From Minisyncoccota bacterium (GTDB taxonomy: Bacteria; Patescibacteriota; Minisyncoccia; Phycocordibacterales; Phycocordibacteraceae), in the NCBI GenBank assembly GCA_022842945.1, contig JALHOO010000002.1:103180-167179 (forward strand): a stretch of 64,000 nt of DNA. Reading direction: 5' to 3'. Shown piece after piece: positions 1,169 through 63,998 of the stretch. Below the pieces are notes generated by a model. The model worked only from the letters and a program-made list of their open reading frames with translations. It did no database searches and had not been told where the DNA came from. Numbering within the stretch: position 1 is the stretch's first letter; the number at the start of each line of letters is the position of its first letter. Made by a program: the position numbers and the translations under genes.

Positions 1169-2620
1169 CTACTCCTCCCTCCAGTCTACAAACTCATAAT
1201 CTGTAGAGGTTGTAGGCGTAAAGGGCGGCGGGTCTGTTGAGAGCTTTCGGTCAAACGCATCAACGCGCGTCTGGTACCCTGCCTGGTTGTTTGATCCACA
1301 ATCAACCCCCGTCCACTTTGTTCCCGTACGCAGGTTTGAGACAGTCGTACCAAGAATAGTTAGAGAGGTGCGAGGCTCATACGAGGTATTACATCGGTCA
1401 TCATTCGCGTTTCGCCAGTAATAGTTGCGACCAAAGGCGCCCCCTTGGGCAACAAAAATGCCGTTCAATGTCATGTTCTGCGGGGAATTTGGCGTAACGA
1501 GCACGTTGTTCTCGGCAATAACTGTAAGTCCATCAGTACCGTCTGTTGCTGCATACGTTAGATTGCCCGGAAGCATCACGTTTGGCTCTATGCCTGTAGT
1601 TACTACGTTTGCCGCAACCACGGTTACCTTCCTATCAACCACTCCCTCAATCCATACATTGTCCTCTACATAAATGAGTCCGCACCCTGCAGGTATCGTG
1701 AGCGTTGAGTAGAAGCTTTCTGAAGAGATAAGGGTACGGTCCGGTAGCGCATCGTCTGACGTGTTCACGTGTGTCGAATGCAAGAGCGTGGTGTTCGTTA
1801 CGCGACGCACCGTTACCGTTCCATTCCCATTAAAGATGAGGTGGTATCCGTCCCAGTAGTTCTGGTTCCCCGTGTTCGTGCCGGTACTATATCGCGGAAG
1901 GTAGTGTCCTGACGCAATCGCTCGTGTCTTCAAACTTGAGAAGTCTGCCGCAATACCACTGAAATCAACCTGAGGCACCGGGTATCCCCACAATGTCTGG
2001 TTCGGTCCATTCCCCCACACACCAGTCTTTGTCTGATTAGGTGAACACCCGAAGGACGAGGTACAGAGCCAGGAGGATAAGGAGCTCGTAACTGGAGAGT
2101 TGGACGTACCGTCCATACGCACACCCCCATTGCTGTGATACGGACCAAGAATAACGCGGTCTTCCCCCGCCCACACACTGTCGTTCAGAATGTACGAGAA
2201 GCGCGCAACCGTTGGTCGCGCATAACGTGCCGTTATGGTGCTCGAAACATTTGGCGCGGCCTCGGGAGTCCCTGTAGAACGGATATCAATCGAGCTTATC
2301 GCTCCGCACGATGTGTTACCAGTTATGGCGAGCTCTATGATTCCCGCATTCCCGCCCTCTGGGTCTGCATAGGGAATGGTGTAAGGACCCGGCACTCCCG
2401 TGCCGTTCTGCAAATCGTTTGGGTAGTGTGCCAAGAACCAGCGATAGTACTCGAGACCTGCCTCAGCAATGGCCGTTGCCTGCACACTCTGCGTTGCTGT
2501 AGATTGTGCTCGGTTCTCGGTTAAAACAAACCCTGAAAGAGCACCCAGTACCGTAAGGAATATCGCACCAAACACGATGGCGAGGAGCATGAGGTAGCCG
2601 CGTACAGGTTCGTGTTTCAT
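1169..2620 (-). CDS. large pilin-like / pseudopilin-like protein (PilX/GspK-like N-terminus)
   Basis: Track ORF trimmed to MKHEPVRGYLMLLAIVFGAIFLTVLG: basic leader, Gly, then a hydrophobic helix without Glu at +5. Last gene of a run of pilin-like genes downstream of pilC. Many NxS/T sites. Confidence 0.45.
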   Translation of the reverse strand: MKHEPVRGYLMLLAIVFGAIFLTVLGALSGFVLTENRAQSTATQSVQATAIAEAGLEYYRWFLAHYPNDLQNGTGVPGPYTIPYADPEGGNAGIIELAITGNTSCGAISSIDIRSTGTPEAAPNVSSTITARYARPTVARFSYILNDSVWAGEDRVILGPYHSNGGVRMDGTSNSPVTSSLSSWLCTSSFGCSPNQTKTGVWGNGPNQTLWGYPVPQVDFSGIAADFSSLKTRAIASGHYLPRYSTGTNTGNQNYWDGYHLIFNGNGTVTVRRVTNTTLLHSTHVNTSDDALPDRTLISSESFYSTLTIPAGCGLIYVEDNVWIEGVVDRKVTVVAANVVTTGIEPNVMLPGNLTYAATDGTDGLTVIAENNVLVTPNSPQNMTLNGIFVAQGGAFGRNYYWRNANDDRCNTSYEPRTSLTILGTTVSNLRTGTKWTGVDCGSNNQAGYQTRVDAFDRKLSTDPPPFTPTTSTDYEFVDWREE

Positions 2621-2624
2621 AAGT

Positions 2625-3224
2625 CTATTCGCTGCGTAGGTTACGGAGCGTTGCCCCTGACTCAAGTCGGAGAATGTTCGGTGCACGAAGAGGATTAATA
2701 TCCACATCAAGACGAGCTCGGACAGAGCGCACACTCGCAATGTCTATAGCACCTGTTAACTCTACGCCATCCTCATCGAAGTATCGGAACACGGGCGTAT
2801 TCGCAGCATTCTTAACATACGTAGCGATAACCGTAGTCGTCTCTGACTGACCGGTGTACGAAGGCGGGTTGCCGGCGGCATTTGTAACGCCCTTATAAAA
2901 CGTATCTCCCGAACGATAGAGTCGCACCTTCTCAATAGCGGGGTCTGCATCGACATCTGCATGGAACGTAACACTTGAGGTTGCTGTGCCCGAAAGAGGA
3001 TACGCCCCATCCTCTCCATACGACGCCTCGCGCAATGAGGTAATGGACTCAGTAAGTCCCCTGCTCGCACTATCAACCGCACTTGTGGCTTCGAGCAGAT
3101 AGGCATTCGTACGATAGAAGTACGCAATCATCGAAAGGAGGCCGACGCCCACAAGTCCTGTAAGCGCAATAACCACGAGCATCTCTGCAAGTGTGAATCC
3201 CCTCATGCGCGCAGCAGTCATCAT
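2625..3224 (-). CDS. type IV pilin-like protein with canonical prepilin (class III) signal peptide
   Basis: MMTAARMRGFTLAEMLVVIALTGLVGVGLL contains the G|FTLxE prepilin peptidase motif. The track ORF 2625..3335 is N-terminally over-extended into the upstream gene. Confidence 0.6.
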   Translation of the reverse strand: MMTAARMRGFTLAEMLVVIALTGLVGVGLLSMIAYFYRTNAYLLEATSAVDSASRGLTESITSLREASYGEDGAYPLSGTATSSVTFHADVDADPAIEKVRLYRSGDTFYKGVTNAAGNPPSYTGQSETTTVIATYVKNAANTPVFRYFDEDGVELTGAIDIASVRSVRARLDVDINPLRAPNILRLESGATLRNLRSE

Positions 3225-4678
3225 TGCAGTATAAGCGTTGCCTCCGTAGCGGTGCCTGGCGCAATCGTATACGGAGGAGTCGAAGACGCCGTAACGATGG
3301 TGTATCCCGGAATCGAAAGCTCGTACACATCCCACTCAAGCGAGAGGGCTCGAACACCAAGCGCAGAGGTTGTTGTCGACACAATAGTCTTTGGTATAGG
3401 CACTCCAGCTCCCGTTGTGCCCTTCTTCTTAGCTCCTGTAAGGGTGAACGGGACATTGGGAAGCGGCACGGGCCCTTCATCAAACGCAATGGTCCACGAG
3501 GCAATCGCTGGTGTCGAGATACCGTCCGAGCTGAATTGCGCACGAACCTGTAGAGCGGGGTATGTAGTAGTTGATACTGCCGAAAGATCTATAGGAAAGG
3601 TACTGAATCCGCTCGTATTTCCTGGAAGCACCGCGTCTGACAACAACGTTCCGGTGCTGTCAGCAATAGATACTAAGAATGACGTACCTGCAGGTGTCGA
3701 CGCAGACACCGCAAGAGAAGTCCATGCGGAAAGATACGAAGGAGCAAACGATACGGACCGCGCACTTCCAGAGAGCGCGTAGCTTAGCGGTGCACCCGAA
3801 AGCATGAGATTGCCCCCTGACACTTGTGTTGAGAGCATTTCTTGCATGAGTGAAGCATCTGTAAAGGTATCAATGGTTGAACTTGCACGTATCGGGGAGA
3901 AGGTTTTCATAACAAGCTGTGCGAGTACATCTATGGAGAACGTGCTGGAGGTTGTCTGATTCTGCGCAACCGTGAGATACCCGGGAGTTGGATTCTGGTT
4001 TGTTGCATCGCGCACATACGTCTCAGCGGTTGAGTACCCGTCCTTGGAAACGGTTATGCGGTAGTTGGTTGAGGTAGGGGCACCCGGGAGAAGCACGATA
4101 CCCTCAAGATCCGCAAAAGTAGTGAAGTCCACCACCGGACTTACGGTTGAGTTCTGAATGCGGACTCCGGCGCCCGGAACCGGCGCACCAAGCGCATCTA
4201 CGGTGTTAATGCGTAGTGTCCCTCCACCAGTCGTGCTTTCAATAGACGGGGGTGCAATGTTTGAAACTACTGCTACCTCACGCTCCTCCTGACGGAAGAT
4301 ATAGGTTGCGGTTACACGCACGCGCTTGTAGTCGGTTGTGATGCCGTTAGCGTCGCTCGCTCCCGTGCCGTCCTTGCTGTCGTCCACATACTGAATAAAG
4401 GTGCGCACACCATACGGAATACCGTTTAGGGTTGTTGTTGCGTACTGCGCCACAGGACCCGCAGGAATACCTCCAAGCGTACCAACCGAGTCATACGGCA
4501 AGGATCTCAAGTACTCGATGTGCGTCGTAGCAACCGCGGTAGCACCGGCCTTTGCTTTAGAGGAGGACGAGATGAGGAGAGACGCGCGCAAGAGCCCCAG
4601 GAGCGCGAGGAAGACAATGAGGATGAGTGCGACACCCACCACCACATCAATGAGCGACATACCGCGCGGTATCTTCAT
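3221..4678 (-). CDS. large (about 485 aa) type IV pilin-like protein
   Basis: MKIPRGMSLIDVVVGVALILIVFLALLGLL: prepilin-like leader ending in Gly, then hydrophobic helix with Asp at +5. The Thr/Ser-rich remainder is unusually long for a pilin. Confidence 0.55.
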   Translation of the reverse strand: MKIPRGMSLIDVVVGVALILIVFLALLGLLRASLLISSSSKAKAGATAVATTHIEYLRSLPYDSVGTLGGIPAGPVAQYATTTLNGIPYGVRTFIQYVDDSKDGTGASDANGITTDYKRVRVTATYIFRQEEREVAVVSNIAPPSIESTTGGGTLRINTVDALGAPVPGAGVRIQNSTVSPVVDFTTFADLEGIVLLPGAPTSTNYRITVSKDGYSTAETYVRDATNQNPTPGYLTVAQNQTTSSTFSIDVLAQLVMKTFSPIRASSTIDTFTDASLMQEMLSTQVSGGNLMLSGAPLSYALSGSARSVSFAPSYLSAWTSLAVSASTPAGTSFLVSIADSTGTLLSDAVLPGNTSGFSTFPIDLSAVSTTTYPALQVRAQFSSDGISTPAIASWTIAFDEGPVPLPNVPFTLTGAKKKGTTGAGVPIPKTIVSTTTSALGVRALSLEWDVYELSIPGYTIVTASSTPPYTIAPGTATEATLILQ

Positions 4679-15615: not shown

Positions 15616-15734
15616 AATGATCAACTCATAATCGTTCCGAACTCGCACGCAAAGGTGCGACGGATATACAGTAAAGATAGCACGCGCCCATCTGGCGAAT
15701 GCGTGACGATACTCTACAGAACACTCTTAGGTAG

Positions 15735-15805
15735 TGCGGGATAGGAGAATCGGACTCCTGCTCTCAGTTTGGAAAACTGATGTTCTACCATTAAACTAAT
15801 CCCGC
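15735..15805 (-). tRNA. tRNA-Gly (anticodon TCC)
   Basis: Manual fold: acceptor GCGGGAT/ATCCCGC, D-arm GTTT..GAAC, anticodon loop TTTCCAA, T-arm AGGAG TCCGATT CTCCT. No encoded CCA. Confidence 0.7.
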
Positions 15806-15876
15806 TTCGGATTCGAGAATACCACATTCTCTATACTCTTCTACAGATGCCATCTGTGCATCCTGTCAAAAACAAA

Positions 15877-15950
15877 GTCGGGGTGCGGAGAATTGAACTC
15901 CGTCTACTTGTTCCCAAAACAAGCGTACTACCGGTATACGACACCCCGAC
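15877..15950 (-). tRNA. tRNA-Pro (anticodon TGG), approximate ends
   Basis: Anticodon stem CTTGT/ACAAG with loop TTTGGGA (G37). T-arm CGGAG TTCAATT CTCCG. Acceptor pairing CGGGGTG/CACCCCG. D-arm assignment is ambiguous by hand. Confidence 0.6.
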
Positions 15951-16309
15951 TTTGCTTTCGACTCACACAGACACCTTCTGGCGGCCGGGAGAGTCTCTCA
16001 CGAATCTCCTGTCTTCGCTATCCTAACAGATTTATAGGATTTGGGCAGATACCCTAGAAAATAGTGGCCGCTACTGAGGTAGTCTTCCCCATTATTCACA
16101 CCCAGATATCCAAGACGTGTCGGATAACGACGTGTCCTTGGGGATAGAAAGTCTTATATACGACTTTAAGGAAAACGTTATGTAATAAGGCTATATTAGG
16201 GACCGTGAAGATTTCTTCAGAAATGTCCCTTGTCCTTTATCCCCAGTACTAACAGGTTTGTCCACTGGTATCCCTTGACGGCATAATCTAGTCTGATAGA
16301 CTGTCTTTA

Positions 16310-17188
16310 ATGGCAAAAGAAACCAAGTACGGCCTCACTTCTTTAAAGAAGGACTTCCCCACAGATGAATCCTGCCTTGAGTTCGTCTTCGATAACCTAC
16401 ATAGCCGAGAGTGCTCATGCGGTGGTACTTACTCGCTTTTAAAAGGACGTAAGAAGTTCCAGTGCTCAAAGTGTCGCTTTCAGATAGCTCCGGCTGCGGG
16501 GACGATCTTCCATAAATCAGATACCCCTCTTACGCTCTGGTTCCATGCCCTGTGGGTGTTCTCGAACGCCAAGAGTGGAATCAGTGCCAAGGAGATGGAA
16601 CGTCAGCTTGAGGTTACATACAAGACGGCATGGAGAATGCTGAAGCTCATACGAGAAGCCCTCGGAAAGGACTTCACACGCCTTGGCGGGGATGTTGAGA
16701 CGGATAGCGCGTACTTCGGTGGCAAGGGCGACGGCGGGGAGTACAACGTGCGACAGAGCACTGTGATGCGCTCAAAGGCGCTGGTTATTGGGGCTGTGGA
16801 GCGTGGAGGACGGGTGCGGACAAAAGTGGTCGAGAGGAACAGCGCTGTGGAGCATGGGAAGTTCCTAGAAGAGAACGTGGATCCCCTCTTTGGAACCCGC
16901 CTCATGACAGACAGCACCAGCGTGCTCGACAATGCAGCTCGAGGATACGAGCGCTTTATGGTTAATCACTCAAGGAAGGAGTGGGTGCGAGGGGATGTAC
17001 ACATAAACACCATGGAATCTTTCTGGAGCCATGTTAAGCGCTCTATCAAGGGGACGCACAAGGCGGTATCTAAACAGCACTTGCAGGGGTACCTCGACGC
17101 CTTTGCCTTTCAATGGAGCAATTCACGCAACGACAGGCGTCGGTTCGCGGTTTTGCTCGGTACTGTATTACTCGCTTCAAGAGTGTAA
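16310..17188 (+). CDS. IS1595-family (ISXO2-like) transposase
   Basis: N-terminal zinc-ribbon (CSCGG...CSKCR) and DDE_Tnp_IS1595 core, with C-terminal ...NTMESFWSHVKRSIKGTHKAVSKQHLQGYLDAFAFQWSNSRN characteristic of the family. Confidence 0.85.
   Translation: MAKETKYGLTSLKKDFPTDESCLEFVFDNLHSRECSCGGTYSLLKGRKKFQCSKCRFQIAPAAGTIFHKSDTPLTLWFHALWVFSNAKSGISAKEMERQLEVTYKTAWRMLKLIREALGKDFTRLGGDVETDSAYFGGKGDGGEYNVRQSTVMRSKALVIGAVERGGRVRTKVVERNSAVEHGKFLEENVDPLFGTRLMTDSTSVLDNAARGYERFMVNHSRKEWVRGDVHINTMESFWSHVKRSIKGTHKAVSKQHLQGYLDAFAFQWSNSRNDRRRFAVLLGTVLLASRV
16310..17188 (+). mobile_element. IS1595-family insertion sequence; minimum extent given as the transposase ORF, terminal inverted repeats not resolved
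   Basis: Transposase gene sits inside a tRNA cluster between tRNA-Pro and the anomalous tRNA. Inverted repeats could not be assigned by eye. Confidence 0.5.
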
Positions 17189-17232
17189 GAAAAGAAGAAC
17201 GATTCATTGGAGCCATTTTAACATTAAACAAA

Positions 17233-17257
17233 AGCCCCTTTCGGGGCTTTTGCTCGT
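17233..17257 (+). terminator. intrinsic terminator after the transposase gene
   Basis: aaaagcccctttcggggcttttgc. Confidence 0.55.
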
Positions 17258-17427
17258 TTCTAACATCCTTTTGGGAGTAAAGATATGACAGAACCTCCAA
17301 GAAAGACACTAGGACTCTGGCTTTATTGGCCAGCTCGGCTCAAGTGCCGAGGCCTGCTAAGGGCATAGAGAATGGTAGCACAAGCCCCGGCACGGTCAAT
17401 CAAGACCGATGGGGGATAAGTTTCAAG

Positions 17428-17516
17428 CGGAGGCGATGGGGTTCGAACCCATGAGACCCTTAGCAAGCCTTCCGAGTTTGGAGCTCGGTGCATTCGACCA
17501 ACTCTGCCACGCCTCC
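17428..17516 (-). tRNA. class II (long variable arm) tRNA with serine identity elements (G73, G2:C71, A3:U70, C11:G24) but anticodon CCA
   Basis: Manual fold: GGAGGCG TG GCA GAGTTGGTCGAA TGC A CCGAG CTCCAAA CTCGG, a 19-nt variable arm, ATGGG TTCGAAC CCCAT, CGCCTCC G. The scaffold parallels E. coli tRNA-Ser and the bona fide tRNA-Ser(TGA) at 63914-63998. Loop CTCCAAA gives anticodon CCA. Confidence 0.55.
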
Positions 17517-17888
17517 TTCAGATGTACCTAAACATAAAACCACTTCAGAGGCAGGGACTCGTGGATTCCGAACTTACGTTTGGAAACCCACTAGTTTGGA
17601 GACCGTGGAGTTTCCCCCACGAGTGCCCACCTCTTAAGTGGTTTGGCTATCCTTTCGGATTCCCTGCCGTCTTGCGGTCTCCATGCAAGACATATTCGTA
17701 TGTATAGGTACATCATTAACTTACCATGATTCATCTAATCCTCCGTGTGCATAAACCATCACGAAATACCTACAGAAAAATGCAAGTCTAGGACATCATG
17801 CTGTGGGGGGATAGGCATGGGTTTGTCCACAGTTGTCCCCAATGCAAAAGACAGCCTTTTGAGCTGTCTTTTGCATCCTTCTCGCTAG

Positions 17889-17959
17889 TGCGGATAGGGA
17901 GAATCGAACTCCCGACTCGTCCTTGGCAAGGACGCGTTTTACCACTAAACCATATCCGC
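17889..17959 (-). tRNA. tRNA-Gly (anticodon GCC)
   Basis: Acceptor GCGGATA/TATCCGC, D-arm GTTT AGTGGTA AAAC, anticodon loop TTGCCAA, T-arm GGGAG TTCGATT CTCCC. Confidence 0.75.
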
Positions 17960-18003
17960 TACGGGAGGCATCATAGCACAGACTGCGCTGTACTATCCAG
18001 TGT

Positions 18004-19185
18004 TTAAAGCGCGTAGTTGGAAGGAGAAAAGGATATATCCTTCACCCTTCCGGAACCCAAGATCATTACTTCGTGGGGCAAAGCATGCATGTTGAAGTTG
18101 CTTGCCATAGAGAATCCGTACGCTCCAGCGTTTCGTATGGCGAGAAAGTCTCCTATCTCTGGACGAATCATAGGACGGCCTACGGCAAACAGATCTCCCG
18201 ACTCACACACGTTACCCGCTATCGATATTGCGGTCTTCGTACCACGCGTGCGCGAAAGGTTCTCTATGGGGTGATATGAGCCGTACATGGCATGTCTGAT
18301 GAGCTGATTGAACCCTGAATTCACTCCAGCAAACAGATGTGCGCTTGTCTCCTTCACGTCAACAACCGATACAAGTAGCGACCCGCTCTCGGCAACGATG
18401 AAGCGACCTGGCTCCATAGCGAATGACACTTCTCGCCCGTGCTTCTTAGCGAAGGCTTTAGACATGGCAACGAACTCCTTCCCTACCCTTTGAAGAGGAA
18501 GCTGTTTCTCTCCTGGCGCGTAGGGCACACCGAGACCTCCGCCGAAATCAATATGTGTGAGCTCCGGGAATGCCTCAGCAGTCTTAAGGAGGGTCTGCAT
18601 TGCCTTGATGAAGATGTCTGCAGAAAGAACGTTGGATCCTATATGCTGCTGGATACCAGTTATAGAAAGGCCGTACTTCTCCGCAATGCGCTTAGCCTCA
18701 GGAATGTCCTTTAGGGTTATGCCGAACTTGCTGTGAGGTCCTCCGGTTATGACATGCGCATGGTGTCCAGCTCCAATGCCCTGATTAAGTCTTAGGGACA
18801 CTTCCCTGCCCAGAGCGCGCCTTCCCCACGTCTCAAGCTGTGTAAGCGAATCAAGATGCACGCGTACGCCCGTCTGCGCAGCTGCACAGAGCTCTTCTTC
18901 AGTTAGGCTCGCGCACGTGAAGCTCGTATCTTTCTTCTTGAATCCAACTGATTTGGCCAGCGACAGCTCGCCCAGACTTACTGCCTCAACCCCTATTCCC
19001 TGCTTTCGTATACCCTTAAGTATCTCAGGGTTGCTGTTTGCCTTCATGGCGTAGTGGAACGCCACACTTGGGAAATACTTAAGAAGCTTCTGGCACTGAT
19101 TCTCAATAACAGACTGCTCGTACACGTAGACAGGGGTGCCGAAGGCACTTGCAACGTTTGTAAGCGCATCTGTTCCCTTTTTCAT
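18004..19185 (-). CDS. lysA: diaminopimelate decarboxylase (PLP-dependent, fold type III)
   Basis: HYAMKANSNPEIL (PLP lysine region), GGGLGVPY and CESGD motifs. Confidence 0.8.
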   Translation of the reverse strand: MKKGTDALTNVASAFGTPVYVYEQSVIENQCQKLLKYFPSVAFHYAMKANSNPEILKGIRKQGIGVEAVSLGELSLAKSVGFKKKDTSFTCASLTEEELCAAAQTGVRVHLDSLTQLETWGRRALGREVSLRLNQGIGAGHHAHVITGGPHSKFGITLKDIPEAKRIAEKYGLSITGIQQHIGSNVLSADIFIKAMQTLLKTAEAFPELTHIDFGGGLGVPYAPGEKQLPLQRVGKEFVAMSKAFAKKHGREVSFAMEPGRFIVAESGSLLVSVVDVKETSAHLFAGVNSGFNQLIRHAMYGSYHPIENLSRTRGTKTAISIAGNVCESGDLFAVGRPMIRPEIGDFLAIRNAGAYGFSMASNFNMHALPHEVMILGSGRVKDISFSPSNYAL

Positions 19186-19188
19186 GAG

Positions 19189-19261
19189 TGCGCCCGGAGG
19201 GAATCGAACCCCCGACCCTCTGTTCCGAAGACAGATGCTCTATCCCCTGAGCTACGGGCGC
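19189..19261 (-). tRNA. tRNA-Arg (anticodon TCG)
   Basis: GCGCCCG TAGCTCAGGGGATAGAGC A TCTGT CTTCGGA ACAGA GGGTC GGGGG TTCGATT CCCTC CGGGCGC A. Directly upstream of lysA. Confidence 0.75.
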
Positions 19262-19950
19262 TTCTGGTCACCATACTCTTCTTTACCGTAGTGTTCAATG
19301 AGCATTTGTTGCCAGTAGGTAATCTTTCGAAAGTATTTAACTTTTCCTAACTCAATTCGCACGCAACCAATGTAATTCGGTCTTTTCTTAACCATTAAAC
19401 CCTGCGATTTAAAGATTGTTTTCCCGAAGCGATTAAGAGGAATGGTAAGTAGCTTAGCCCACACCTCTTCATGCTTTTCGTGAGCAAAAGACTTGTGCGT
19501 ATACACACGCATTCTAATTTCATCCTCCGCAGGCCTAAGGTACTCCCTTATCCAATTAATCATCAATCTCGCCATTTCGGAATCAGAGTTCATGAAGCCA
19601 AACGCTGGTGACCTCTTCGAGCCTTCTGCCCAGTACAAACCGATTCCCAATATAAAGAAGGCGTCCTTCTTGTTCTGATCAAACTCTTTTCTTGCTTCTT
19701 CCAATATTTGCTTATCTCTTTCAAGGCGCGCTTGTCGAAGTGAGGTTGCGGCTCGTATTCTTCCGCGGCTTATACTACTGTCCTTTCTTCGCTTTAAGAG
19801 TCTCATTTCGGCTTCAGTAAGCACTGAATCCTTGAGCCATAGCGACACAGAGCTTTTTGAAACTGGCACTTTTTCAAGTATTTGGCGGTACGTTAGCCCC
19901 TTCTTGCGAAGCTCTAAGACAAGTTCCATTTCTCGAACCTTTGATAACAT
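19252..19950 (-). CDS. hypothetical protein with N-terminal HTH-like region and a possible single LAGLIDADG-like motif
   Basis: 232 aa; N-terminus LTYRQILEKVPVSKSSVSLWLK is HTH-like. FILGIGLYWAEGSK loosely resembles LAGLIDADGS. The 3' end overlaps tRNA-Arg by about 10 nt. Confidence 0.35.
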   Translation of the reverse strand: MLSKVREMELVLELRKKGLTYRQILEKVPVSKSSVSLWLKDSVLTEAEMRLLKRRKDSSISRGRIRAATSLRQARLERDKQILEEARKEFDQNKKDAFFILGIGLYWAEGSKRSPAFGFMNSDSEMARLMINWIREYLRPAEDEIRMRVYTHKSFAHEKHEEVWAKLLTIPLNRFGKTIFKSQGLMVKKRPNYIGCVRIELGKVKYFRKITYWQQMLIEHYGKEEYGDQKRP

Positions 19951-20006: not shown

Positions 20007-21470
20007 ATGAAGTTCCCTATTCCCCTTGAGGTTTCCCGTGTAACAGCCGATCTCCGAAGTGCAGGATATGAGGCATATCTGGTAGGCGGTTGCGTGCGCG
20101 ACCTCCTTTTAGGACGGAACCCGAAGGACTGGGACGTAACCACAAACGCTAAGCCTGAGCAGATTCAGGCAGTATTTCCAGAATCCTTCTATGAGAACGA
20201 TTTCGGTACGGTAGGAGTGAAGACCGGAAGCGAGGACAACACCCTCGCAATTATTGAAGTGACCCCTTACCGCACGGAGACCGGGTACTCAGACAAGCGC
20301 AGACCTGACGCTGTGGCATTTGGGGATAACTTAGAGGAGGATCTTGCTCGCCGTGACTTCACCATCAATGCCATTGCCCTTGATGATTCTAAAGGACATT
20401 TCATTGACCCCTTTAAAGGACAGGAGGACGTACAGTCGAAGGTATTAAGGACAGTTGGGGTTGCTGCGGACCGTTTTGAAGAGGACGCACTGCGTCTTAT
20501 GAGGGCCGTTCGCCTCGTGGCTGAGCTTGAATTCGCTCTAGACGCCGACACGGCCGCCGCAATCCAGGAGAAGGGACCGAACCTCAAGCACATTTCACGT
20601 GAAAGGGTTCGGGATGAGTTCGTTCGCATCCTGAACTCTAAGCAGCCCATGATGGCTCTGGTTCTCTGCCAGCAGCTCGGTATTCTCACGTATATAGCTC
20701 CCGACCTCACACGCGGAATAGGCATAGACCAGAATCAAGCCCATAGTTACGACGTATTTGGACATCTCATCCGCTCCCTTCAGCATGCTGCTGACAAGGA
20801 CTGGGGCTTTGATATACGCCTAGCAGCTGTTTTTCATGACGTTTCAAAGCCTGAGACCAGGCGCTGGTCTGACGAAAAGAACGATTGGACCTTCCACGGA
20901 CATGAGGTTGTTGGTTCACGTGTAACAAAGAGGGCTTTGGAAGACCTTAAGTTTTCACGTGAAACTATAGAGAAAGTGACCAAATTGGTCCGTTGGCACA
21001 TGTTCTTCTCTGATCCTGATCAGATTACCCTTTCAGCAGTTCGACGCATGATTCGCAATGTTGGCGAGGAACACATTTGGGATCTCCTCAACCTCCGGAT
21101 ATGCGACCGCATTGGCACAGGACGCCCGAAGGAGCAGCCGTTCAGGTTCCGCAGGTATAAGGCTATGGTTGAGGAGGCGCTTAGGGACCCAATATCTGTG
21201 ACCATGCTAAAGACTGACGGCTCACGGATTATGGAGAAGTTCCACGTGCAACCAGGTCCAAAGATAGGTTTTGCCCTGCACGCCCTTCTTGAAGAGGTTC
21301 TAGAGGACCCAAAGCGCAATACTGAGGATTACCTAGACGGGCGGACCAAGTCCCTTCTTGAGCTCCCTGAGGCTGAACTAAAAGAGTTAGGGGATTCTGG
21401 AAAGAAGCGCCGAGAGGCTGAGGAAGAACGAGAGATCAAAGAAATCCTAGAGAAGCATCACGTTTGCTAG
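20007..21470 (+). CDS. cca: CCA-adding tRNA nucleotidyltransferase with HD domain
   Basis: GGCVRDLLLGRNPKDWDVTT (pol-beta-like nucleotidyltransferase head); HD motifs FHDVSKPET and HGHEVVGS. Confidence 0.85.
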   Translation: MKFPIPLEVSRVTADLRSAGYEAYLVGGCVRDLLLGRNPKDWDVTTNAKPEQIQAVFPESFYENDFGTVGVKTGSEDNTLAIIEVTPYRTETGYSDKRRPDAVAFGDNLEEDLARRDFTINAIALDDSKGHFIDPFKGQEDVQSKVLRTVGVAADRFEEDALRLMRAVRLVAELEFALDADTAAAIQEKGPNLKHISRERVRDEFVRILNSKQPMMALVLCQQLGILTYIAPDLTRGIGIDQNQAHSYDVFGHLIRSLQHAADKDWGFDIRLAAVFHDVSKPETRRWSDEKNDWTFHGHEVVGSRVTKRALEDLKFSRETIEKVTKLVRWHMFFSDPDQITLSAVRRMIRNVGEEHIWDLLNLRICDRIGTGRPKEQPFRFRRYKAMVEEALRDPISVTMLKTDGSRIMEKFHVQPGPKIGFALHALLEEVLEDPKRNTEDYLDGRTKSLLELPEAELKELGDSGKKRREAEEEREIKEILEKHHVC

Positions 21471-59921: not shown

Positions 59922-59926
59922 TTGTG

Positions 59927-59999
59927 TGCGCCCGCCTGGGCTCGAACCAGGGACCGTCTCCTTAAAAGGGAGCTGCTCTACCAACTGAGCTACGGGCGC
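59927..59999 (-). tRNA. tRNA-Lys (anticodon TTT)
   Basis: GCGCCCG TAGCTCAGTTGGTAGAGC A GCTCC CTTTTAA GGAGA CGGTC CCTGG TTCGAGC CCAGG CGGGCGC A. Confidence 0.75.
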
Positions 60000-60032
60000 A
60001 ATATGCTTCTTTCGCACTTGGACGTTATACCG

Positions 60033-60959
60033 CTAATACGTATACAGGTCTACCGTTCGTCCTTCAGTATCAAGTAGCTTAACGGCGTCTCTGGAAGATT
60101 TCCAGAACTCGTCAGAGCGTCCACGAGAGTTCTCGTGTTCTAGATATATGCGCCACGTGTCGCCCGTGAAATCCGCGTCCGCACTGTGTGTAGCAACACA
60201 ACCGCTGTACGTAAGGCGATCGTCGATGAACTGGATGCAGGCATTTGATACGGAGCGGTCACTTGGGGTGTCGCAGGTGGCCGTACTTTGCATGCGCTCG
60301 TAACAACGATCGTCACGAAGTGCATTGCCCGAGTAATACCGATCGAACTCCCGTGCTGCGTCAGGGCATTGATTACTTACGCTCGGGAAGAAGCCCTGAT
60401 TGCGCGTGAGGTATCCAATACACATGTTCTCCTTAAAGGAGACCCCGATAGGGGACTCGCCCGTAACAACAATAGCTTCGTCTCCAGGATTGAGCACAAT
60501 GCGCCCTGTACTGTTTACGCGACCAGAGCGCGGAAGGCTCGCGCCCTCTGGAATGCGCACACTTCTTCCAGACGCTCCTGAAACGAGCCTCCAGTCAGTT
60601 ATGTCAACACTCACGTCTCCACGCGCACGAAGCACTATGTACTCCTTGTCCGCGTCCTCGCTACTAACACCCGCAACACTTGAGACTTCAACCTGCCCCT
60701 TCTGGGGAGACGCAACATCATTTGCGCCAATATTCATGCCTCCTGAAAAGCTGCCGCCCATAATGTCAGACCATACGCTGCGTGCACGGAAATCAACCGT
60801 AGGGGTGTCGCCGTATCCTTGCTGAATAGTGTCGACATCTGTTATGGGCGTAATGTAGGGACCTGCGAACGATATGGGTTTGGTTGGTCCGCCGGTTGCG
60901 AACCAGAGTATGAAAAAGAAGGCGAGGACGCCGAGAAAGAAAACTCCGTCGCTTTGCAT
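60033..60959 (-). CDS. secreted/membrane-anchored hypothetical protein with Cys-rich C-terminal part
   Basis: N-terminal hydrophobic segment VFFLGVLAFFFILWFATGG. 308 aa with 8 Cys in the C-terminal third. Confidence 0.4.
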   Translation of the reverse strand: MQSDGVFFLGVLAFFFILWFATGGPTKPISFAGPYITPITDVDTIQQGYGDTPTVDFRARSVWSDIMGGSFSGGMNIGANDVASPQKGQVEVSSVAGVSSEDADKEYIVLRARGDVSVDITDWRLVSGASGRSVRIPEGASLPRSGRVNSTGRIVLNPGDEAIVVTGESPIGVSFKENMCIGYLTRNQGFFPSVSNQCPDAAREFDRYYSGNALRDDRCYERMQSTATCDTPSDRSVSNACIQFIDDRLTYSGCVATHSADADFTGDTWRIYLEHENSRGRSDEFWKSSRDAVKLLDTEGRTVDLYTY

Positions 60960-60963
60960 AGCT

Positions 60964-62244
60964 CTATAGTACCAAGCCCTTCTTCAGTTTCCGTAGTTCT
61001 TCACGCACCACCTCAGCGTCACTCCACGGCGTCCTCGTATCGTTCGCTTCCATGATGTAGGGGTCAGTCCCTTTGCCGGTTACGAGCACAGCGTCTCCTG
61101 TGTGTGCAAGCGATAGCGCATGTGCGATGGCTTCTCTGCGGTCCATGATGATGGTTGGCTTCTTCTCCATACCGTCTGCCATTGCGTCAACAATTGCGCG
61201 CGGGTCCTCCTCGTACGGATCTTCGTTCGTAAGGATAACTTCGTCGCAGTACTCTTCGGCGATAGCTCCCATCTCCGGGCGCTTCCAGGTATCACGTCCG
61301 CCGCCGGTGTTTCCAAGTACGCAGATGCGACGCGTTGGGTACGCTTCGTAGAGCGCCTTTAGAGAGTCTGGTGTGTGTGCGTAGTCCACAATGGCTTGGA
61401 AGTCCTGGCCCTCTTCAATTCTTTCCGTGCGTCCCGGAATGCGGTCAAGTTGTGCGAGTGCCTCTGCACAGGTTTCAAGCGGTACACCAAGGAACCGTGC
61501 GGCCCTAATAACCGCAAGCGCGTTCATAACACTGAAGCTTCCGGGAAGCTTCATGGAGAAGCGCACGCCTTCATAGGTGAAGGCGACGGTGCCGGGAGCA
61601 TGCACGACATCCGTAACATCCTCGTATGAGAAGGGGAGTTTCTCCTCAACCGAAAGTGCGAGGTATGGCTCGCTGTGTACGTTGTCTTTGTTTGCGATTA
61701 TGGCGCGCGGACGCTTTGGAGAGCGTGCAAGCTCCTTGCCAATCTCAAGTTTGGCGGCTGCGTAGTTCTCGAATGAACCATGCGACTCGATGTGTTCCCT
61801 ATGAAGGTTCGTAAACACAAGTCCATCGAGGTAGAGGTAACGGTGGCGACTCTGGCGAACACTCTCAGAGGTTATCTCGAGAACCGCGTGGGTAGCACCA
61901 GCCTTTCGCGCACGCGCAAGAAACGCATGAATGAACCCGCGTCCGGGCATGGTCATCTTAAAAAGGTTCGGCTCTGAAGTGTCGCGTATGGCAAAACGAA
62001 TAGTGCCCGCAACCGCTGCAGGAATGCCTGCATAGTGAAGGACAGTGAAGAGCATGTCAGACACTGAAGACTTTCCCTTAGTGCCCGTTACACCGATAAC
62101 GGTCATGTGCCGAGCGGGGAACCCATAACTTCCCGCAAGCATGAATGCCATCACGCGGTGATAGAGAGGAAGAAGCGGCCGCACCAACGAGCGGGGAAGC
62201 AGTTTCTTCAAGAATTCAATGAGGGTGTTGAGAATGCGGTACAT
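60964..62244 (-). CDS. Mur ligase family protein (MurE/MurF/MurT-like)
   Basis: VIGVTGTKGKSSVSDMLFTVL P-loop of Mur ligases, middle and C-terminal domains. Only 426 aa. Confidence 0.6.
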   Translation of the reverse strand: MYRILNTLIEFLKKLLPRSLVRPLLPLYHRVMAFMLAGSYGFPARHMTVIGVTGTKGKSSVSDMLFTVLHYAGIPAAVAGTIRFAIRDTSEPNLFKMTMPGRGFIHAFLARARKAGATHAVLEITSESVRQSRHRYLYLDGLVFTNLHREHIESHGSFENYAAAKLEIGKELARSPKRPRAIIANKDNVHSEPYLALSVEEKLPFSYEDVTDVVHAPGTVAFTYEGVRFSMKLPGSFSVMNALAVIRAARFLGVPLETCAEALAQLDRIPGRTERIEEGQDFQAIVDYAHTPDSLKALYEAYPTRRICVLGNTGGGRDTWKRPEMGAIAEEYCDEVILTNEDPYEEDPRAIVDAMADGMEKKPTIIMDRREAIAHALSLAHTGDAVLVTGKGTDPYIMEANDTRTPWSDAEVVREELRKLKKGLVL

Positions 62245-62246
62245 GG

Positions 62247-62792
62247 CTATTTTGCTGAGAGGGCTGCTTTAAGGCGTGCGTCTTTCCCCACAACACTCGC
62301 AGGAATCTTTCCAAGTGTTGCGCGTGCTTCACGGTCGGTGTAGCCGAGTGCCACAAGAGTATCGAATACTTCTCCGTCGTCGCTGTCAGGAGCCGTACCT
62401 CCGCCAACTTTCTCCGAGAGCTCGACCATGAGTTTCTCGGCAGCCTTCTTTCCGAGACCAATAACGCGCGTGAGGTAGTCGAGGTCACGCTTCCCAATAG
62501 CGCCCTCAAGGGCTTCGCGAGGAGCTTTCCTAAGGATGGAGAGTGCGGTCTTTGGTCCAACCCCTGGAACACCCAGTAGAAGCTCGAAGAACTTGCGCTC
62601 AGCCTCGTCTGCAAACCCGTATAGGTCCATACCGTCCTGCTTTATGGCGAGATAGGTCTTGAGAGTAATCTCAGCTCCCTCAGGGTACGTTTCAGGGGAC
62701 ACGACATGGACTAGGGTGCCCCAGCCACTAATATCAAGGACGATGCCCCCAGCTTCCGCTCCCATAACCGTGCCGCGTACGTGTCGGATCAT
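62247..62792 (-). CDS. ruvA: Holliday junction DNA helicase subunit RuvA
   Basis: Track ORF trimmed to MIRHVRGTVMG...; helix-hairpin-helix motifs LLLGVPGVGPKTALSIL; C-terminal domain III. Confidence 0.85.
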   Translation of the reverse strand: MIRHVRGTVMGAEAGGIVLDISGWGTLVHVVSPETYPEGAEITLKTYLAIKQDGMDLYGFADEAERKFFELLLGVPGVGPKTALSILRKAPREALEGAIGKRDLDYLTRVIGLGKKAAEKLMVELSEKVGGGTAPDSDDGEVFDTLVALGYTDREARATLGKIPASVVGKDARLKAALSAK

Positions 62793-62850
62793 GTGAGTAT
62801 CGTAGCATTTCTTGCGCATATGAGCGGAATGCCGTACTATCCGGTCTACA

Positions 62851-63114
62851 ATGGCAATTACGAAGAACGCAAAGAAGGCGCACCGCGCATCCCTCAAGAA
62901 GCACGTTTTCAACGTGCGCCGCAAGCGCACCCTTGCTGACGCTACTAAGGTAGTGAAGAAGGCTATCGGCACCGACCTTAAGGAAGCTGAGAAGTCCCTT
63001 CCAGCTGCTTTTAAGGCAATCGACAAGGCGGCGAAGACCGGTGTTATCAAGAAGAACGCGGCAGACCGCAAGAAGTCCCGTCTCGCTAAGGCAATCGCGC
63101 GCGCGAAAGCGTAA
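62851..63114 (+). CDS. rpsT: 30S ribosomal protein S20
   Basis: MAITKNAKKAHRASLKKHVFNVRRKR... is the basic S20 N-terminus. Confidence 0.9.
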   Translation: MAITKNAKKAHRASLKKHVFNVRRKRTLADATKVVKKAIGTDLKEAEKSLPAAFKAIDKAAKTGVIKKNAADRKKSRLAKAIARAKA

Positions 63115-63126
63115 CGAAGACAAAAG

Positions 63127-63150
63127 AAAAGGCCCGCACAAGCGGGCCTT
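63127..63150 (+). terminator. intrinsic terminator after rpsT
   Basis: aaaaggcccgcacaagcgggccttttctttt. Confidence 0.6.
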
Positions 63151-63159
63151 TTCTTTTAG

Positions 63160-63231
63160 TGCTCCTGGCAGGAATCGAACCTGCATCAATTCCTTCGGAG
63201 GGAACTATCCTATCCATTGAACGACAGGAGC
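63160..63231 (-). tRNA. tRNA-Arg (anticodon CCG)
   Basis: Acceptor GCTCCTG/CAGGAGC, anticodon stem GTTCC/GGAAT with loop CTCCGAA, T-arm GCAGG TTCGATT CCTGC. No encoded CCA. Confidence 0.65.
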
Positions 63232-63258
63232 GAATCTCCATAGTAGCGCACGGGGTGT

Positions 63259-63333
63259 TGGTGCTCTTGGATGGAATCGAACCATCATTACAACTTCCGC
63301 AAAGTTGCGTCCTATCCATTGAACGACAAGAGC
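63259..63333 (-). tRNA. tRNA-Arg (anticodon GCG) with genomically encoded 3' CCA
   Basis: GCTCTTG...CAACT TTGCGGA AGTTG...ATGG TTCGATT CCAT CAAGAGC A CCA. Confidence 0.7.
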
Positions 63334-63366
63334 GTATCAGGACTCTACCGCACCCTTTACCTTAAA

Positions 63367-63840: not shown

Positions 63841-63910
63841 AGATACACGAATGATAGCACTGCATGTGCGCACATGAGCGTGTATGAACACTTATATCTT
63901 CGTAACACTT

Positions 63911-63998
63911 TGGCGGAGGAGGCGAGATTCGAACTCGCGGTACCTTTCAGTACGGCGCATTTCAAGTGCGCTGGAATAAACCACTATCCGACTCCTCC
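63911..63998 (-). tRNA. tRNA-Ser (anticodon TGA) with encoded CCA
   Basis: GGAGGAG...GCGCA CTTGAAA TGCGC, long variable hairpin GTACTGAAAGGTAC, GCGAG TTCGAAT CTCGC, CTCCTCC G CCA. Has Ser identity pairs G2:C71 and A3:U70. Confidence 0.75.

Follow-up and report, generated by a model that had tools for sequence, protein, structure and literature searches.

A serine-type class II tRNA with a tryptophan anticodon carried within an IS1595-family insertion sequence of a Patescibacteria chromosome

Within the window, by which we mean the whole stretch of 64,000 nucleotides that was analysed, there is a tRNA gene on the minus strand that has a serine-type body with the tryptophan anticodon CCA. The gene is carried as a passenger by an insertion sequence of the IS1595 family, and this element has landed in the spacer between tRNA-Gly(gcc) and tRNA-Pro(tgg) of a Patescibacteria (Paceibacteria-like) chromosome.

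The insertion sequence and its empty site

The element and the features within it are listed below, with the evidence for each.

16255-16262, no strand: target-site duplication, left copy of the 8-bp GGTTTGTC, present as a single copy in relatives
16263-17819, no strand: insertion sequence of the IS1595 family, about 1557 bp, with transposase and tRNA cargo, absent in L001-L004; ends placed by comparison with L007 and L008
16263-16292, plus: left terminal inverted repeat CACTGGTATCCCTTGACGGCATAATCTAGT, from comparison with L007 and L008 and a direct check
16310-17188, plus: IS1595-family DDE transposase of 292 aa (Pfam DDE_Tnp_IS1595, PF12762, E = 1.1e-30)
17229-17252, no strand: G+C-rich hairpin with T-runs on both strands, from a terminator scan and folding of the trailer
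17253-17427, minus: structured 3′ trailer of the tRNA (fold z-score -5.1, repeat I6, motif scan)
17428-17516, minus: serine-type class II tRNA, anticodon CCA (ARAGORN, Rfam, segmentation, masked-anticodon profiles, nearest neighbours)
17521-17714, minus: long hairpin made of nested inverted repeats (I1, I2), about 190 nt, within the cargo and directly 5′ of the tRNA (fold z-score -5.6)
17790-17819, minus: right terminal inverted repeat, reverse complement CATGCCTATCCCCCCACAGCATGATGTCCT, from comparison with L007 and L008 and a direct check
17820-17827, no strand: target-site duplication, right copy of the 8-bp GGTTTGTC, a perfect match to the left copy

The transposase, the terminal inverted repeats, the 8-bp direct duplication and the empty site in relatives together place the element in the IS1595 family. 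A target duplication of 8 bp is typical of that family (ISfinder). The right and left terminal repeats match at 18 of their 30 positions, with the right repeat homologous to those of L007 and L008, and the core of the left repeat, TATCCCTTGAC, is common to about 45 IS1595 copies in viral contigs. Homologues of the transposase number in the thousands, mainly in Patescibacteria.

In all four syntenic relatives (L001-L004) the order is Gly(gcc)-spacer-Pro(tgg), with neither insertion sequence nor tRNA(CCA), and the empty site carries one GGTTTGTC. An earlier note on this DNA had placed the tRNA beside an IS1595 insertion. The inverted repeats and the 8-bp duplication enclose the gene, however, so that it lies inside the element. 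Nor is it a resident tRNA-Ser of the chromosome that has mutated; the four syntenic relatives are without the gene, which arrived as cargo of the insertion sequence.

Fold and charging identity of the tRNA

ARAGORN predicts a tRNA(cca) gene on the minus strand, spanning 17427-17516. The Rfam tRNA model RF00005 matches 17428-17516 with 58.2 bits (E = 5.6e-10), a score within the range of 53.6-73.1 bits given by the window's other eight tRNAs. Read directly, the gene is a class II tRNA of 89 nt with a 7/5 cloverleaf. The acceptor stem GGAGGCG/CGCCUCC forms seven Watson-Crick pairs and is followed by U8 and G9, and the 3-bp D-stem GCA/UGC carries G13·A22 and the D-loop AGUUGGUCGA. The anticodon stem CCGAG/CUCGG closes the loop CUCCAAA, and the 19-nt variable region, AAGGCUUGCUAAGGGUCUC, forms a stem of six pairs of which three are G·U. 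The T-arm is AUGGG-UUCGAAC-CCCAU and the discriminator is G73. The CCA end is not encoded, and in this and in the 3′ flank CT the gene is the same as the host's own tRNAs. All four main stems are perfectly Watson-Crick paired, and the conserved tertiary nucleotides U8, A14, G18G19, A21, U33, G53, U54U55C56, A58 and C61 are all kept.

The earlier description of an intact 89-nt class II tRNA with a 19-nt variable arm on the minus strand, with the anticodon loop CTCCAAA and an anticodon CCA one substitution from the serine anticodon CGA, is in full accord with these results. A check with a tRNA caller had been proposed; ARAGORN calls the gene, and its Rfam score is not low against those of the host tRNAs. 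The likeness to tRNA-Ser(TGA) at 63914-63998 that had been pointed out is present, although it is only moderate, with 53 of 89 columns identical.

The anticodons CCA and CGA differ by a single base, and a sequencing or assembly error at position 35 might thus have disguised a plain tRNA-Ser(CGA). A Logan contig from run SRR28154525 (L005), which is an independent assembly, shows no difference from the window over 2137 nt (100% identity), a stretch that takes in the CCA anticodon, and an assembly error is therefore unlikely. Comparable class II tRNA(CCA) genes are moreover found in other IS1595 contexts, and we consider error at this position hardly credible. With the stems intact and the independent assembly identical, neither the disrupted pseudogene raised in the earlier note nor an obvious sequence error was borne out.

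Serine identity in bacteria resides in G73, G1:C72 and G2:C71, with A3:U70 and C11:G24 in E. coli (PMC9976931). Every element of the set formerly described for this tRNA (G73, G2:C71, A3:U70 and C11:G24) is present on direct reading, together with G1:C72. Profiles with the anticodon masked score the tRNA at 40.7 bits for Ser, 12.3 for Leu and 4.0 for Tyr. The closest non-CCA tRNAs are all tRNA-Ser, with 75-79% identity; the 487 full-length matches in phage genomes (T4-like) are tRNA-Ser wherever they are annotated; and a search with the D-arm pattern recovered Ser tRNAs alone. The anticodon itself is CCA and not the NGA or GCU that would read a serine codon. We rejected tRNA-Leu and tRNA-Tyr on the basis of structure and profile scores. 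A tRNA-Sec was likewise rejected, as it requires an 8/5 (13-bp) acceptor branch, a 6-bp D-stem and UCA where the window tRNA has 7/5, a 3-bp D-stem and CCA, and it is the general tRNA model that scores best in Rfam.

The exact tRNA is known from one lineage only across the genome, viral and metagenome collections. Its D-arm, CCA and T-loop patterns gave 0 matches in the viral and genome collections. An anticodon-arm pattern with the anticodon left free found no near-identical tRNA in the JGI metagenomes, so that no parent Ser(CGA) was seen there, and in the 64-kb window ARAGORN found neither a canonical tRNA-Trp nor a tRNA-Ser(CGA). The lysA product encoded in the window had no exact match, and homology search was used in its place.

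Class II-shaped tRNA(CCA) genes with Trp-type acceptor ends are common in the tRNA arrays of huge phages. U72 is retained in 85 of 106 array copies and many have C2:G71; Caulobacter phage CcrColossus (JX100810.1) has an 86-nt long-arm tRNA(CCA) annotated as tRNA-Trp. The array copies resemble the window tRNA in their long variable arm, CCA, G73 and a body that is Ser- or Tyr-like by profile. They differ in their N1:U72 and frequent C2:G71, in contrast to the serine acceptor pairs of the window tRNA, which is also cargo of an insertion sequence. Moreover, they adjoin canonical tRNA-Trp among long-arm versions of many class I tRNAs, and none is next to an IS1595 transposase. Membership of this family was ruled out for the window tRNA by G1:C72 in place of N1:U72 and by its solitary context in an insertion sequence, as opposed to a dense array.

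Tryptophan identity in bacteria is set by the anticodon CCA, by G73 and by the first pair of the acceptor stem, and in B. subtilis G2:C71, G4:C69 and G5:C68 contribute as well (PMC9976931). Most of the determinants for TrpRS are present in the window tRNA (CCA, G73, G2:C71, G4:C69 and G5:C68), and exclusive serylation is therefore not assured. The gene could then be an odd-shaped working tRNA-Trp, in which TrpRS recognizes CCA and G73 in spite of the long arm, so that it mostly brings tryptophan to UGG as an extra mobile tRNA-Trp, with an identity that is at most dual (Ser/Trp). By the published rule (PMC9976931) all that it lacks of the bacterial determinants is A1:U72 and G3:C70, and the abundance in phage arrays of class II-shaped tRNA(CCA) with U72-G73 ends, annotated as tRNA-Trp in CcrColossus, indicates that a long arm is compatible with a Trp-type tRNA. 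Yet the class I shape of tRNA-Trp, with a variable loop of 4-5 nt and A1:U72, is replaced here by a 19-nt arm and G1:C72. The acceptor pairs G1:C72, G2:C71 and A3:U70 are the serine set, and the array copies differ in just these positions, having mostly U72 and often C2:G71, which is an anti-determinant for SerRS. Furthermore, the tRNA(CCA) carried by a sister element (L245) has A73, C1:G72 and a leucine body that bacterial TrpRS should reject, so that charging with tryptophan is not the common denominator of the cargo. We consider a working tRNA-Trp improbable.

Cargo of related elements and the sequence around the tRNA

The same lineage of insertion sequence is found at the same site with different cargo in L007 and L242-244, and in L242/243 this cargo consists of toxin-antitoxin-like ORFs, SocA_Panacea and a partner. 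The sister element L245 has a transposase 72% identical to that of the window, its own inverted repeats and a 7/8 target duplication. Its cargo is the leucine-type class II tRNA(CCA) noted above, which is 85 nt long and scores 42.8 bits for Leu against 19.4 for Ser with masked profiles, and this is adjoined by a G-1:C73 tRNA-like(GGU). We detected no nucleotide homology between the cargo of the window element and that of L245.

Three further cases pair an IS1595 transposase with a class II tRNA. In L114 and L095 the transposase (Pfam 5.9e-37) is separated by 177 nt from a serine-type tRNA(CCA) in convergent orientation, the CCA anticodon having itself been a condition of the search. The source of L095 is an Alphaproteobacteria MAG, in which both transposase and tRNA look decayed, the tRNA with an A30·C40 mismatch. 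In L026 the transposase is followed by a convergent serine-type tRNA(CUU). No convincing inverted repeats were found around the tRNA in L114/L095 or L026; we therefore claim cargo for the window and L245 only, and the other tRNAs may be insertion targets. No PLSDB plasmid record contained both the transposase and the tRNA of L114. The approximately 45 IS1595 copies in viral contigs have a variable slot of 140-2700 nt running from the transposase gene to the right end. One further adjoining class II tRNA was seen among 80 viral-contig copies, and the leucine-type CCA pattern gave 0 matches in viral contigs.

The window element is like other IS1595 elements with passenger genes in its DDE_Tnp_IS1595 transposase, inverted repeats, 8-bp duplication and variable slot before the right end. 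It differs in that its passenger is a tRNA gene, and we found no literature report of tRNA passengers in IS1595 elements.

The sequence on either side of the tRNA is structured. The hairpin at 17229-17252 could act as a terminator for the plus-strand transposase transcript and the convergent minus-strand tRNA transcript alike. The apical loop of the 17521-17714 hairpin is again CUCCAAACU; its tRNA-like similarity by local alignment is weak, and with no Rfam match to the hairpin we rejected the idea that it is a decayed tRNA-Trp. Within the trailer, a 14-nt stretch at 17350-17363 is complementary to the variable arm of the tRNA. Similarity between trailer and tRNA is not significant, with 81 of 500 shuffles scoring equally high, and a plus-strand fragment downstream was rejected as a tRNA remnant for this reason.

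A tRNA-Ser(CGA) might have been captured with flanking DNA, for example through a more distant surrogate right end, have then acquired G35C, and now be an inert, silent or poorly expressed pseudo-tRNA that leaves translation unaffected. This is consistent with the inverted-repeat-like motif GATGGGGGATAAG at 17405-17420 on the plus strand, which lies inside the element 8 nt from the 3′ end of the tRNA as if an older right end had been read through, and with the further tRNA-like debris in the cargo. A simple sigma-70 scan called no promoter 5′ of the tRNA on its strand, in keeping with a silent gene, although such a scan is uninformative for this phylum. The G·U-rich variable stem and the decay of the L095 counterpart point the same way, and many allo-tRNA(UAU) genes adjacent to transposons were inactive in E. 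coli (PMC5389517). Against inertness, the main stems are perfectly paired with every conserved tertiary nucleotide kept, and the Rfam score is on a par with those of the host tRNAs. In addition, the unrelated leucine-type cargo tRNA also has the anticodon CCA, a coincidence not predicted by chance drift (about 1 in 64). Capture followed by silencing is in our view unlikely, though it should be taken seriously.

A tRNA-like RNA might instead serve the element outside translation, in a toxin-antitoxin-like or defence function, as a decoy or substitute for a nuclease directed at tRNA-Trp, as an RNA toxin or antitoxin, or as a processing signal. Toxin-antitoxin-like genes fill the same slot in L242/243, and the hairpins on both sides of the tRNA are unusually stable (z-scores of -5.6 and -5.1). 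The pairing in L245 of tRNA(CCA) with G-1:C73 tRNA-like(GGU) also resembles the 'irregular tRNA polycistron' near toxin-antitoxin systems, charged yet unused in translation, that Mukai et al. describe. However, the cargo in the window is without a gene for a partner protein, nothing in the sequence sets such a role apart from that of an ordinary tRNA, and the proposal makes no specific prediction that sequence analysis could test. We regard it as having little probability.

Possible consequences at UGG codons

The UGG codons in genes of the window align with conserved tryptophan positions. The codon is therefore not reassigned, and we excluded reassignment as an explanation.

The reading that we favor, at somewhat below even confidence, is that this intact serine-type tRNA(CCA) carried by an IS1595 element is a mobile missense tRNA that places serine at UGG, kin in type to the allo-tRNAs. 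The tRNA would be transcribed from inside the cargo, and the host CCA-adding enzyme, whose gene lies at 20007-21470, would add CCA to its 3′ end. SerRS, being blind to the anticodon, would then charge it, and the charged tRNA would compete with the resident tRNA-Trp at UGG to give some substitution of serine for tryptophan. As CCA and G73 are also present, some of the molecules may receive tryptophan, which would dilute the effect. The earlier note had proposed a natural mistranslating tRNA; we infer the same from sequence, and the leucine-type tRNA(CCA) in the sister element strengthens the case. The recurrence of CCA on a leucine-type body that is also anticodon-blind suggests that reading of UGG is selected and not accidental. 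Speculatively, the benefit might be reduced ribosome stalling in an auxotrophic symbiont that is short of tryptophan, or else toxicity or addiction, as with the toxin-antitoxin cargo occupying the same slot in other copies.

Several considerations weigh against a missense tRNA, among them the lack of a called promoter and the single lineage noted above. Given most of the bacterial Trp determinants, the tRNA may be largely charged with tryptophan and harmless. Heavy substitution of serine for tryptophan would be damaging, the UGG codons being at conserved tryptophan positions. Finally, the three G·U pairs in the six-pair variable stem could be drift.

Variants of tRNA-Ser altered in the anticodon stay serylated and mistranslate (PMC9976931). 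The allo-tRNAs (Mukai et al. 2017, NAR, PMC5389517; reviewed in PMC7609411) are of SerRS type; their variable arm is long, and their anticodons, which cover 35 codons, are not those of serine. In E. coli they insert Ser, or Ala, at both sense and stop codons. Their genes often adjoin toxin-antitoxin genes or transposon ORFs, and their polycistrons include 7/5 forms and a G-1 tRNA(GGU). The window tRNA shares with them a serine-type body and a non-serine anticodon; it lies on a transposable element, sister copies of which have toxin-antitoxin-like cargo, and the G-1:C73 tRNA-like(GGU) beside tRNA(CCA) in L245 recalls their polycistrons. However, allo-tRNAs are defined by an 8/4 or 9/3 acceptor/T branch and a tRNA-Sec-like D-arm, where the window tRNA has the canonical 7/5 shape of tRNA-Ser, and they are reported from Clostridia, Proteobacteria and Acidobacteria, not from Patescibacteria. 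Neither carriage within a delimited insertion sequence, with inverted repeats and target duplication, nor a leucine-type counterpart was found in the passages on allo-tRNAs that were consulted.

Yeast tRNA-Ser(UGG) and human tRNA-Ser-AGA-2-3 G35A are further mistranslating tRNA-Ser variants (PMC9976931, PMC6125640, PMC12993449 and PMC9258585). Like the window tRNA they have one anticodon change on a tRNA-Ser body, in the human variant also at position 35. They are, however, engineered or segregating alleles of resident nuclear genes, whereas the window tRNA is bacterial and mobile and reads the sole tryptophan codon. A natural mismatch of identity and anticodon is also seen in the nematode nev-tRNAs (Leu body with Gly or Ile anticodon) and in Streptomyces tRNA-ProX (Pro body with Thr or Ala anticodon). 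These differ from the window tRNA in organism and in identity, and to our knowledge neither has been reported as cargo of an insertion sequence.

A broader proposal, which we consider rather doubtful, is that IS1595 elements of Patescibacteria and of a distant Alphaproteobacteria lineage spread anticodon-blind class II tRNAs of Ser and Leu type that have converged on CCA, as a mobile module making UGG ambiguous (Ser or Leu). Such a module might spare tryptophan or relieve stalling where the symbiont is auxotrophic; alternatively, it might be toxic or addictive, a counterpart of the toxin-antitoxin genes in the same slot.

Callers based on the anticodon give 'tRNA-Trp' for the window gene. Such labels conceal the insertion sequence case, and they equally conceal the long-arm tRNA(CCA) genes of huge-phage arrays, a family that is large and distinct from it. 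It is rare in nature for the charging identity of a tRNA to contradict its anticodon, and such tRNAs are raw material for code change and regulated mistranslation. Here an identity-mismatched tRNA travels inside a precisely delimited insertion sequence, and in a sister element the tryptophan anticodon recurs on another, different tRNA that is anticodon-blind. If these tRNAs are active, the passenger slots of insertion sequences would hold tRNAs besides proteins, and ambiguity at UGG would be a trait that the Patescibacteria, ultra-small and auxotrophic for amino acids, could acquire by horizontal transfer.

Fold and location of the tRNA

The tRNA lies within an insertion sequence in the tRNA cluster of the window; the features in and near this element are as follows.

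Features at the tRNA locus
17428-17516, minus strand: class II tRNA of 89 nt, called by ARAGORN as tRNA(cca) at 17427-17516 and by the Rfam tRNA model
16310-17188, opposite strand to the tRNA: IS1595 transposase gene (Pfam E = 1.1e-30)
17229-17252: hairpin inside the element, a potential two-way transcription terminator
17521-17714, minus strand: nested hairpin of ~190 nt in the cargo, directly upstream of the tRNA
20007-21470: CCA-adding enzyme gene, within the tRNA cluster and near the tRNA

The Rfam score of 58.2 bits (E = 5.6e-10) is inside the range of the other eight tRNAs of the window (53.6-73.1 bits). The acceptor stem GGAGGCG/CGCCUCC can be read directly as seven Watson-Crick pairs out of seven. 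U8 and G9 are present, the D-stem comprises G10-C25, C11-G24 and A12-U23 plus G13.A22, and the D-loop AGUUGGUCGA contains A14, G18G19 and A21. The anticodon stem CCGAG/CUCGG closes the loop C-U-CCA-A-A, and the variable region of 19 nt (AAGGCUUGCUAAGGGUCUC) forms a six-pair stem, three of the pairs being G.U. The T-arm is AUGGG-UUCGAAC-CCCAU and the discriminator is G73. All the features that the earlier note gave are there: a class II tRNA with a 19-nt variable arm, G73, G2:C71, A3:U70, C11:G24 and a CCA anticodon, one step from the serine anticodon CGA. The parallel it drew with the tRNA-Ser(TGA) of the window exists but is modest, with 53 identical positions. The 3' flank is CT with no encoded CCA, as for most host tRNAs; the window has nine tRNA genes (15734-19261, 59926-63998), and seven of them, this one included, lack an encoded CCA end. 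CT directly follows six of those seven.

A sequence error is unlikely. An independent assembly from SRR28154525 (L005) is identical to the window across 2137 nt that include the tRNA and its CCA anticodon, and the transposase is recovered at 100% identity on Logan contigs. The tRNA is most probably no assembly artefact.

Homologues of lysA place the window in Patescibacteria/Paceibacteria. Four relatives (L001-L004, lysA 76-85% identical) have in common the gene order Arg(tcg)-lysA-Gly(gcc)-spacer-Pro(tgg)-Gly(tcc), and none of the four has a class II tRNA at the syntenic locus. Aligning their spacers and comparing other copies of the transposase gene delimits an insertion of ~1557 bp in the window, at 16263-17819. 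Its inverted repeats are imperfect, with the left end CACTGGTATCCCTTGAC... and the right end (reverse complement) CATGCCTATCCCCCCAC... matching at 18 of 30 positions; they are homologous to the ends of the sister elements L007 and L008, and a perfect 8-bp direct repeat, GGTTTGTC, flanks the element. The tRNA is convergent with the transposase gene across a gap of 239 nt. It therefore sits inside the element as passenger cargo, rather than beside it as the earlier note had it. A mutated resident tRNA gene is ruled out by the element ends, the 8-bp duplication and the empty site in L001-L004.

The upstream hairpin is very stable, with arms of 28 nt and 16 nt and a z-score of -5.6. Its tip repeats the anticodon-loop sequence CUCCAAACU, a T-loop-like motif (GUUCGGAAU) comes after, and the hairpin has no Rfam match. 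A structured trailer lies 3' of the tRNA, also inside the cargo.

Separately, an ORF of 232 aa at 19252-19950 (minus strand) has a LAGLIDADG-like motif, GLYWAEGS, with no match in a Pfam search. It shares 10 nt with the 5' end of tRNA-Arg(tcg) and fills ~690 bp that L001-L004 lack in the interval from tRNA-Arg to the CCA-adding enzyme gene. The ORF is a candidate for a second recent insertion and could encode a free-standing homing endonuclease.

Amino-acid identity

We built anticodon-masked profile HMMs from the class II tRNAs of the fetched loci (49 Ser, 81 Leu and 13 Tyr). The tRNA scores 40.7 bits with the serine profile, 12.3 with leucine and 4.0 with tyrosine. Its closest non-CCA neighbours are all tRNA-Ser (75-79% identity), a D-arm pattern search of viral contigs matched only serine tRNAs, and among 487 full-length blastn matches in 50,697 phage genomes every annotated one is tRNA-Ser. 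Serine identity resides in the long variable arm, G73 and the conserved G1-C72 and G2-C71, independently of the anticodon (Giege and Eriani, PMC9976931). Since the tRNA has these features, it is predicted to be of SerRS type by the published criteria. Tryptophan identity in bacteria depends on the CCA anticodon, the discriminator G73 and the first base pair, and in B. subtilis on G2-C71, G3-C70 and G4-C69 strongly and on A1-U72 and G5-C68 to a minor degree (PMC9976931). By this comparison most tryptophan determinants are therefore present too, A1:U72 and G3:C70 being missing, and the sequence may permit dual charging with serine and tryptophan.

Sister elements and other tRNAs with anticodon CCA

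We retrieved 80 IS1595 copies from viral contigs (L009-L088). About 45 of them have a common repeat core, TATCCCTTGAC, a terminal repeat, GGnnnnTATCCCTTGACnnCAnGTA, and a passenger segment of 140-2700 nt running from the transposase gene to the right end. Six close relatives of the window element, with transposases identical at 70% or more, were sampled. No tRNA is present in L008 or L246, and the others are as follows.

Sister elements (locus, transposase identity, site, cargo)
L007, 82%: same site as in the window, duplication GGTTTATC; two ORFs
L242-L244, 73%: between Pro(tgg) and Gly(gcc); 126-aa ORF and SocA_Panacea protein, a toxin-antitoxin-like pair
L245, 72%: own repeats, 7/8 duplication (A/C)AGTAATC; two RNA genes

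One spot in the Gly(gcc)/Pro(tgg) spacer has been hit in three Paceibacteria genomes (window 16255-17827, L007 203-2160, L242 ~2088-4170), with GGTTTGTC or GGTTTATC duplicated, and the closer relatives L001-L004 keep an empty site. The target resembles the element end (TGTCCCC/TATCCCC motifs), and the cargo differs between every copy at this spot. The shared spot, the end-like target and the different cargos together suggest site-specific insertion and cargo swapping in this lineage.

One RNA gene of L245 is a class II tRNA of 85 nt with anticodon CCA, D-arm GUGCAAUUGGUAGACAC and A73, scoring 42.8 bits with the masked leucine profile versus 19.4 with serine. The other, 51 nt upstream, is tRNA-like with anticodon GGU:

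3456-3527, plus strand (L245): tRNA-like gene, Rfam 47.1 bits

Its anticodon loop is AUGGUAC, G18G19 and the T-Psi-C motif are missing, and with its flanks the acceptor helix reaches ~19 bp, giving a tRNA-His-like end, G-1:C73. It resembles the G-1 tRNA(GGU) contained in the irregular tRNA polycistrons that Mukai et al. 2017 (PMC5389517) describe. The same cargo encodes a predicted membrane protein of 95 aa with four Trp codons (4057-4344, plus strand). The window and L245 cargos have no nucleotide similarity. Sister elements bear one tryptophan anticodon on two unrelated anticodon-blind bodies, CCA being one step from the cognate anticodon in each (CGA for serine in the window, CAA for leucine in L245).

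A degenerate pattern for class II tRNAs with CCA was matched by 13 loci when 185,579 species genomes were scanned, and metagenomes added at least 120; ARAGORN confirmed 106 tRNAs. Very few of these are of serine type (G1:C72, G2:C71, A3:U70, G73). Two of these, L095 (from an Alphaproteobacteria MAG) and L114, for which CCA was a search condition, have an IS1595 transposase (Pfam 5.9e-37, with a Zn_ribbon_IS1595 domain) in convergent orientation at a distance of 177 nt, the same geometry as in the window. In L026, found via its transposase, the IS1595 transposase gene is followed after 318 nt by a serine-type tRNA in convergent orientation, whose anticodon is CUU. These three loci support an association of IS1595 with odd tRNAs and are not counted as cargo, because the element ends are not definable there. 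The L026 tRNA (4141-4226, minus strand), class II with a lysine anticodon, has a mismatched acceptor stem; nearby, at 3990-4110, the variable arm and 3' end of a tRNA-Ser (CCTCCTCCGCCA) are partly duplicated, as at an integration junction, and a 75-nt class I tRNA with serine anticodon AGA is 600 nt away. Further serine-type tRNAs(CCA) occur at L118 38-214, L200 ~2840-3016 and L100 6148-6241; among them, one follows an irregular class I tRNA after 12 nt and adjoins a 1073-aa Pfam-less protein, and one (Limisphaerales MAG) is between cas6 and other putative cas genes.

A tryptophan-type end, N1:U72 with G73, is found in 85 of the 106, often with C2:G71, and most of the 106 are a phenomenon apart from the window tRNA. 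This large family (82-94 nt, class II-shaped, A1 or G1 with U72, G73) belongs to dense tRNA arrays (L104-L241), for example:

L107 5-90
L108 10292-10384
L170 2171-2257

About 20 adjoin a canonical tRNA-Trp of 72-75 nt, and long-arm His, Glu, Gln, Met, Val, Lys, Pro, Cys, Asn and Ile tRNAs occur in the same arrays. They are found on IMG/VR contigs of 320-405 kb, from huge phages, and a representative matches the annotated 86-nt tRNA-Trp of Caulobacter phage CcrColossus (L247 589-674 = JX100810.1 59240-59325). Their bodies score Ser- or Tyr-like, and no IS1595 transposase is near them. We found no report of long-arm tRNA-Trp in open-access text. The tRNA(CCA) of L. reuteri plasmid p53608_1 (L098) has a Firmicute tRNA-Tyr variable arm.

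Reading of UGG and relation to known systems

Trp codons of the window align with invariant tryptophan in lysA (39 homologues) and the transposase (48), ruling out reassignment of UGG. The tRNA, if active, would cause ambiguity or mistranslation at UGG and no new code. It would be transcribed from within the cargo (a promoter scan called none for it), processed and given its CCA end. SerRS would serylate it whatever the anticodon, and the product would compete with tRNA-Trp at UGG, leading to Trp-to-Ser changes; any charging by TrpRS would dilute this effect. TrpRS should reject the leucine-type tRNA(CCA) of L245 because of its A73, so that the common denominator of the lineage would be the reading of UGG by a non-Trp tRNA. 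The recurrence of CCA in the two elements appears to favour function over accident.

The closest described system is that of the allo-tRNAs and irregular tRNA polycistrons, reported by Mukai et al. (PMC5389517; review PMC7609411). Their tRNAs have serine identity but bear non-serine anticodons of 35 kinds, act as missense or nonsense suppressors in E. coli and are often located by toxin-antitoxin genes or a transposon ORF. On paper the window tRNA would work likewise. However, allo-tRNAs are defined by an 8/4 or 9/3 structure, whereas the window tRNA is 7/5 and falls outside the definition; it differs too in phylum and as shown IS cargo. Mistranslating anticodon variants of tRNA-Ser in yeast and humans provide a mechanistic precedent (PMC9976931). 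A search of open-access text turned up no IS1595 element described as having a tRNA passenger.

The earlier observation is confirmed and its interpretation partly supported, and we re-frame the gene as an IS1595-borne tRNA with mismatched identity and anticodon, of putative activity. From its sequence we regard it as a mobile tRNA(CCA) of serine type, to which a leucine-type tRNA in a sister element is the counterpart. Speculatively, it may benefit an auxotroph by sparing tryptophan, or it may be toxic or addictive in the manner of the toxin-antitoxin cargo.
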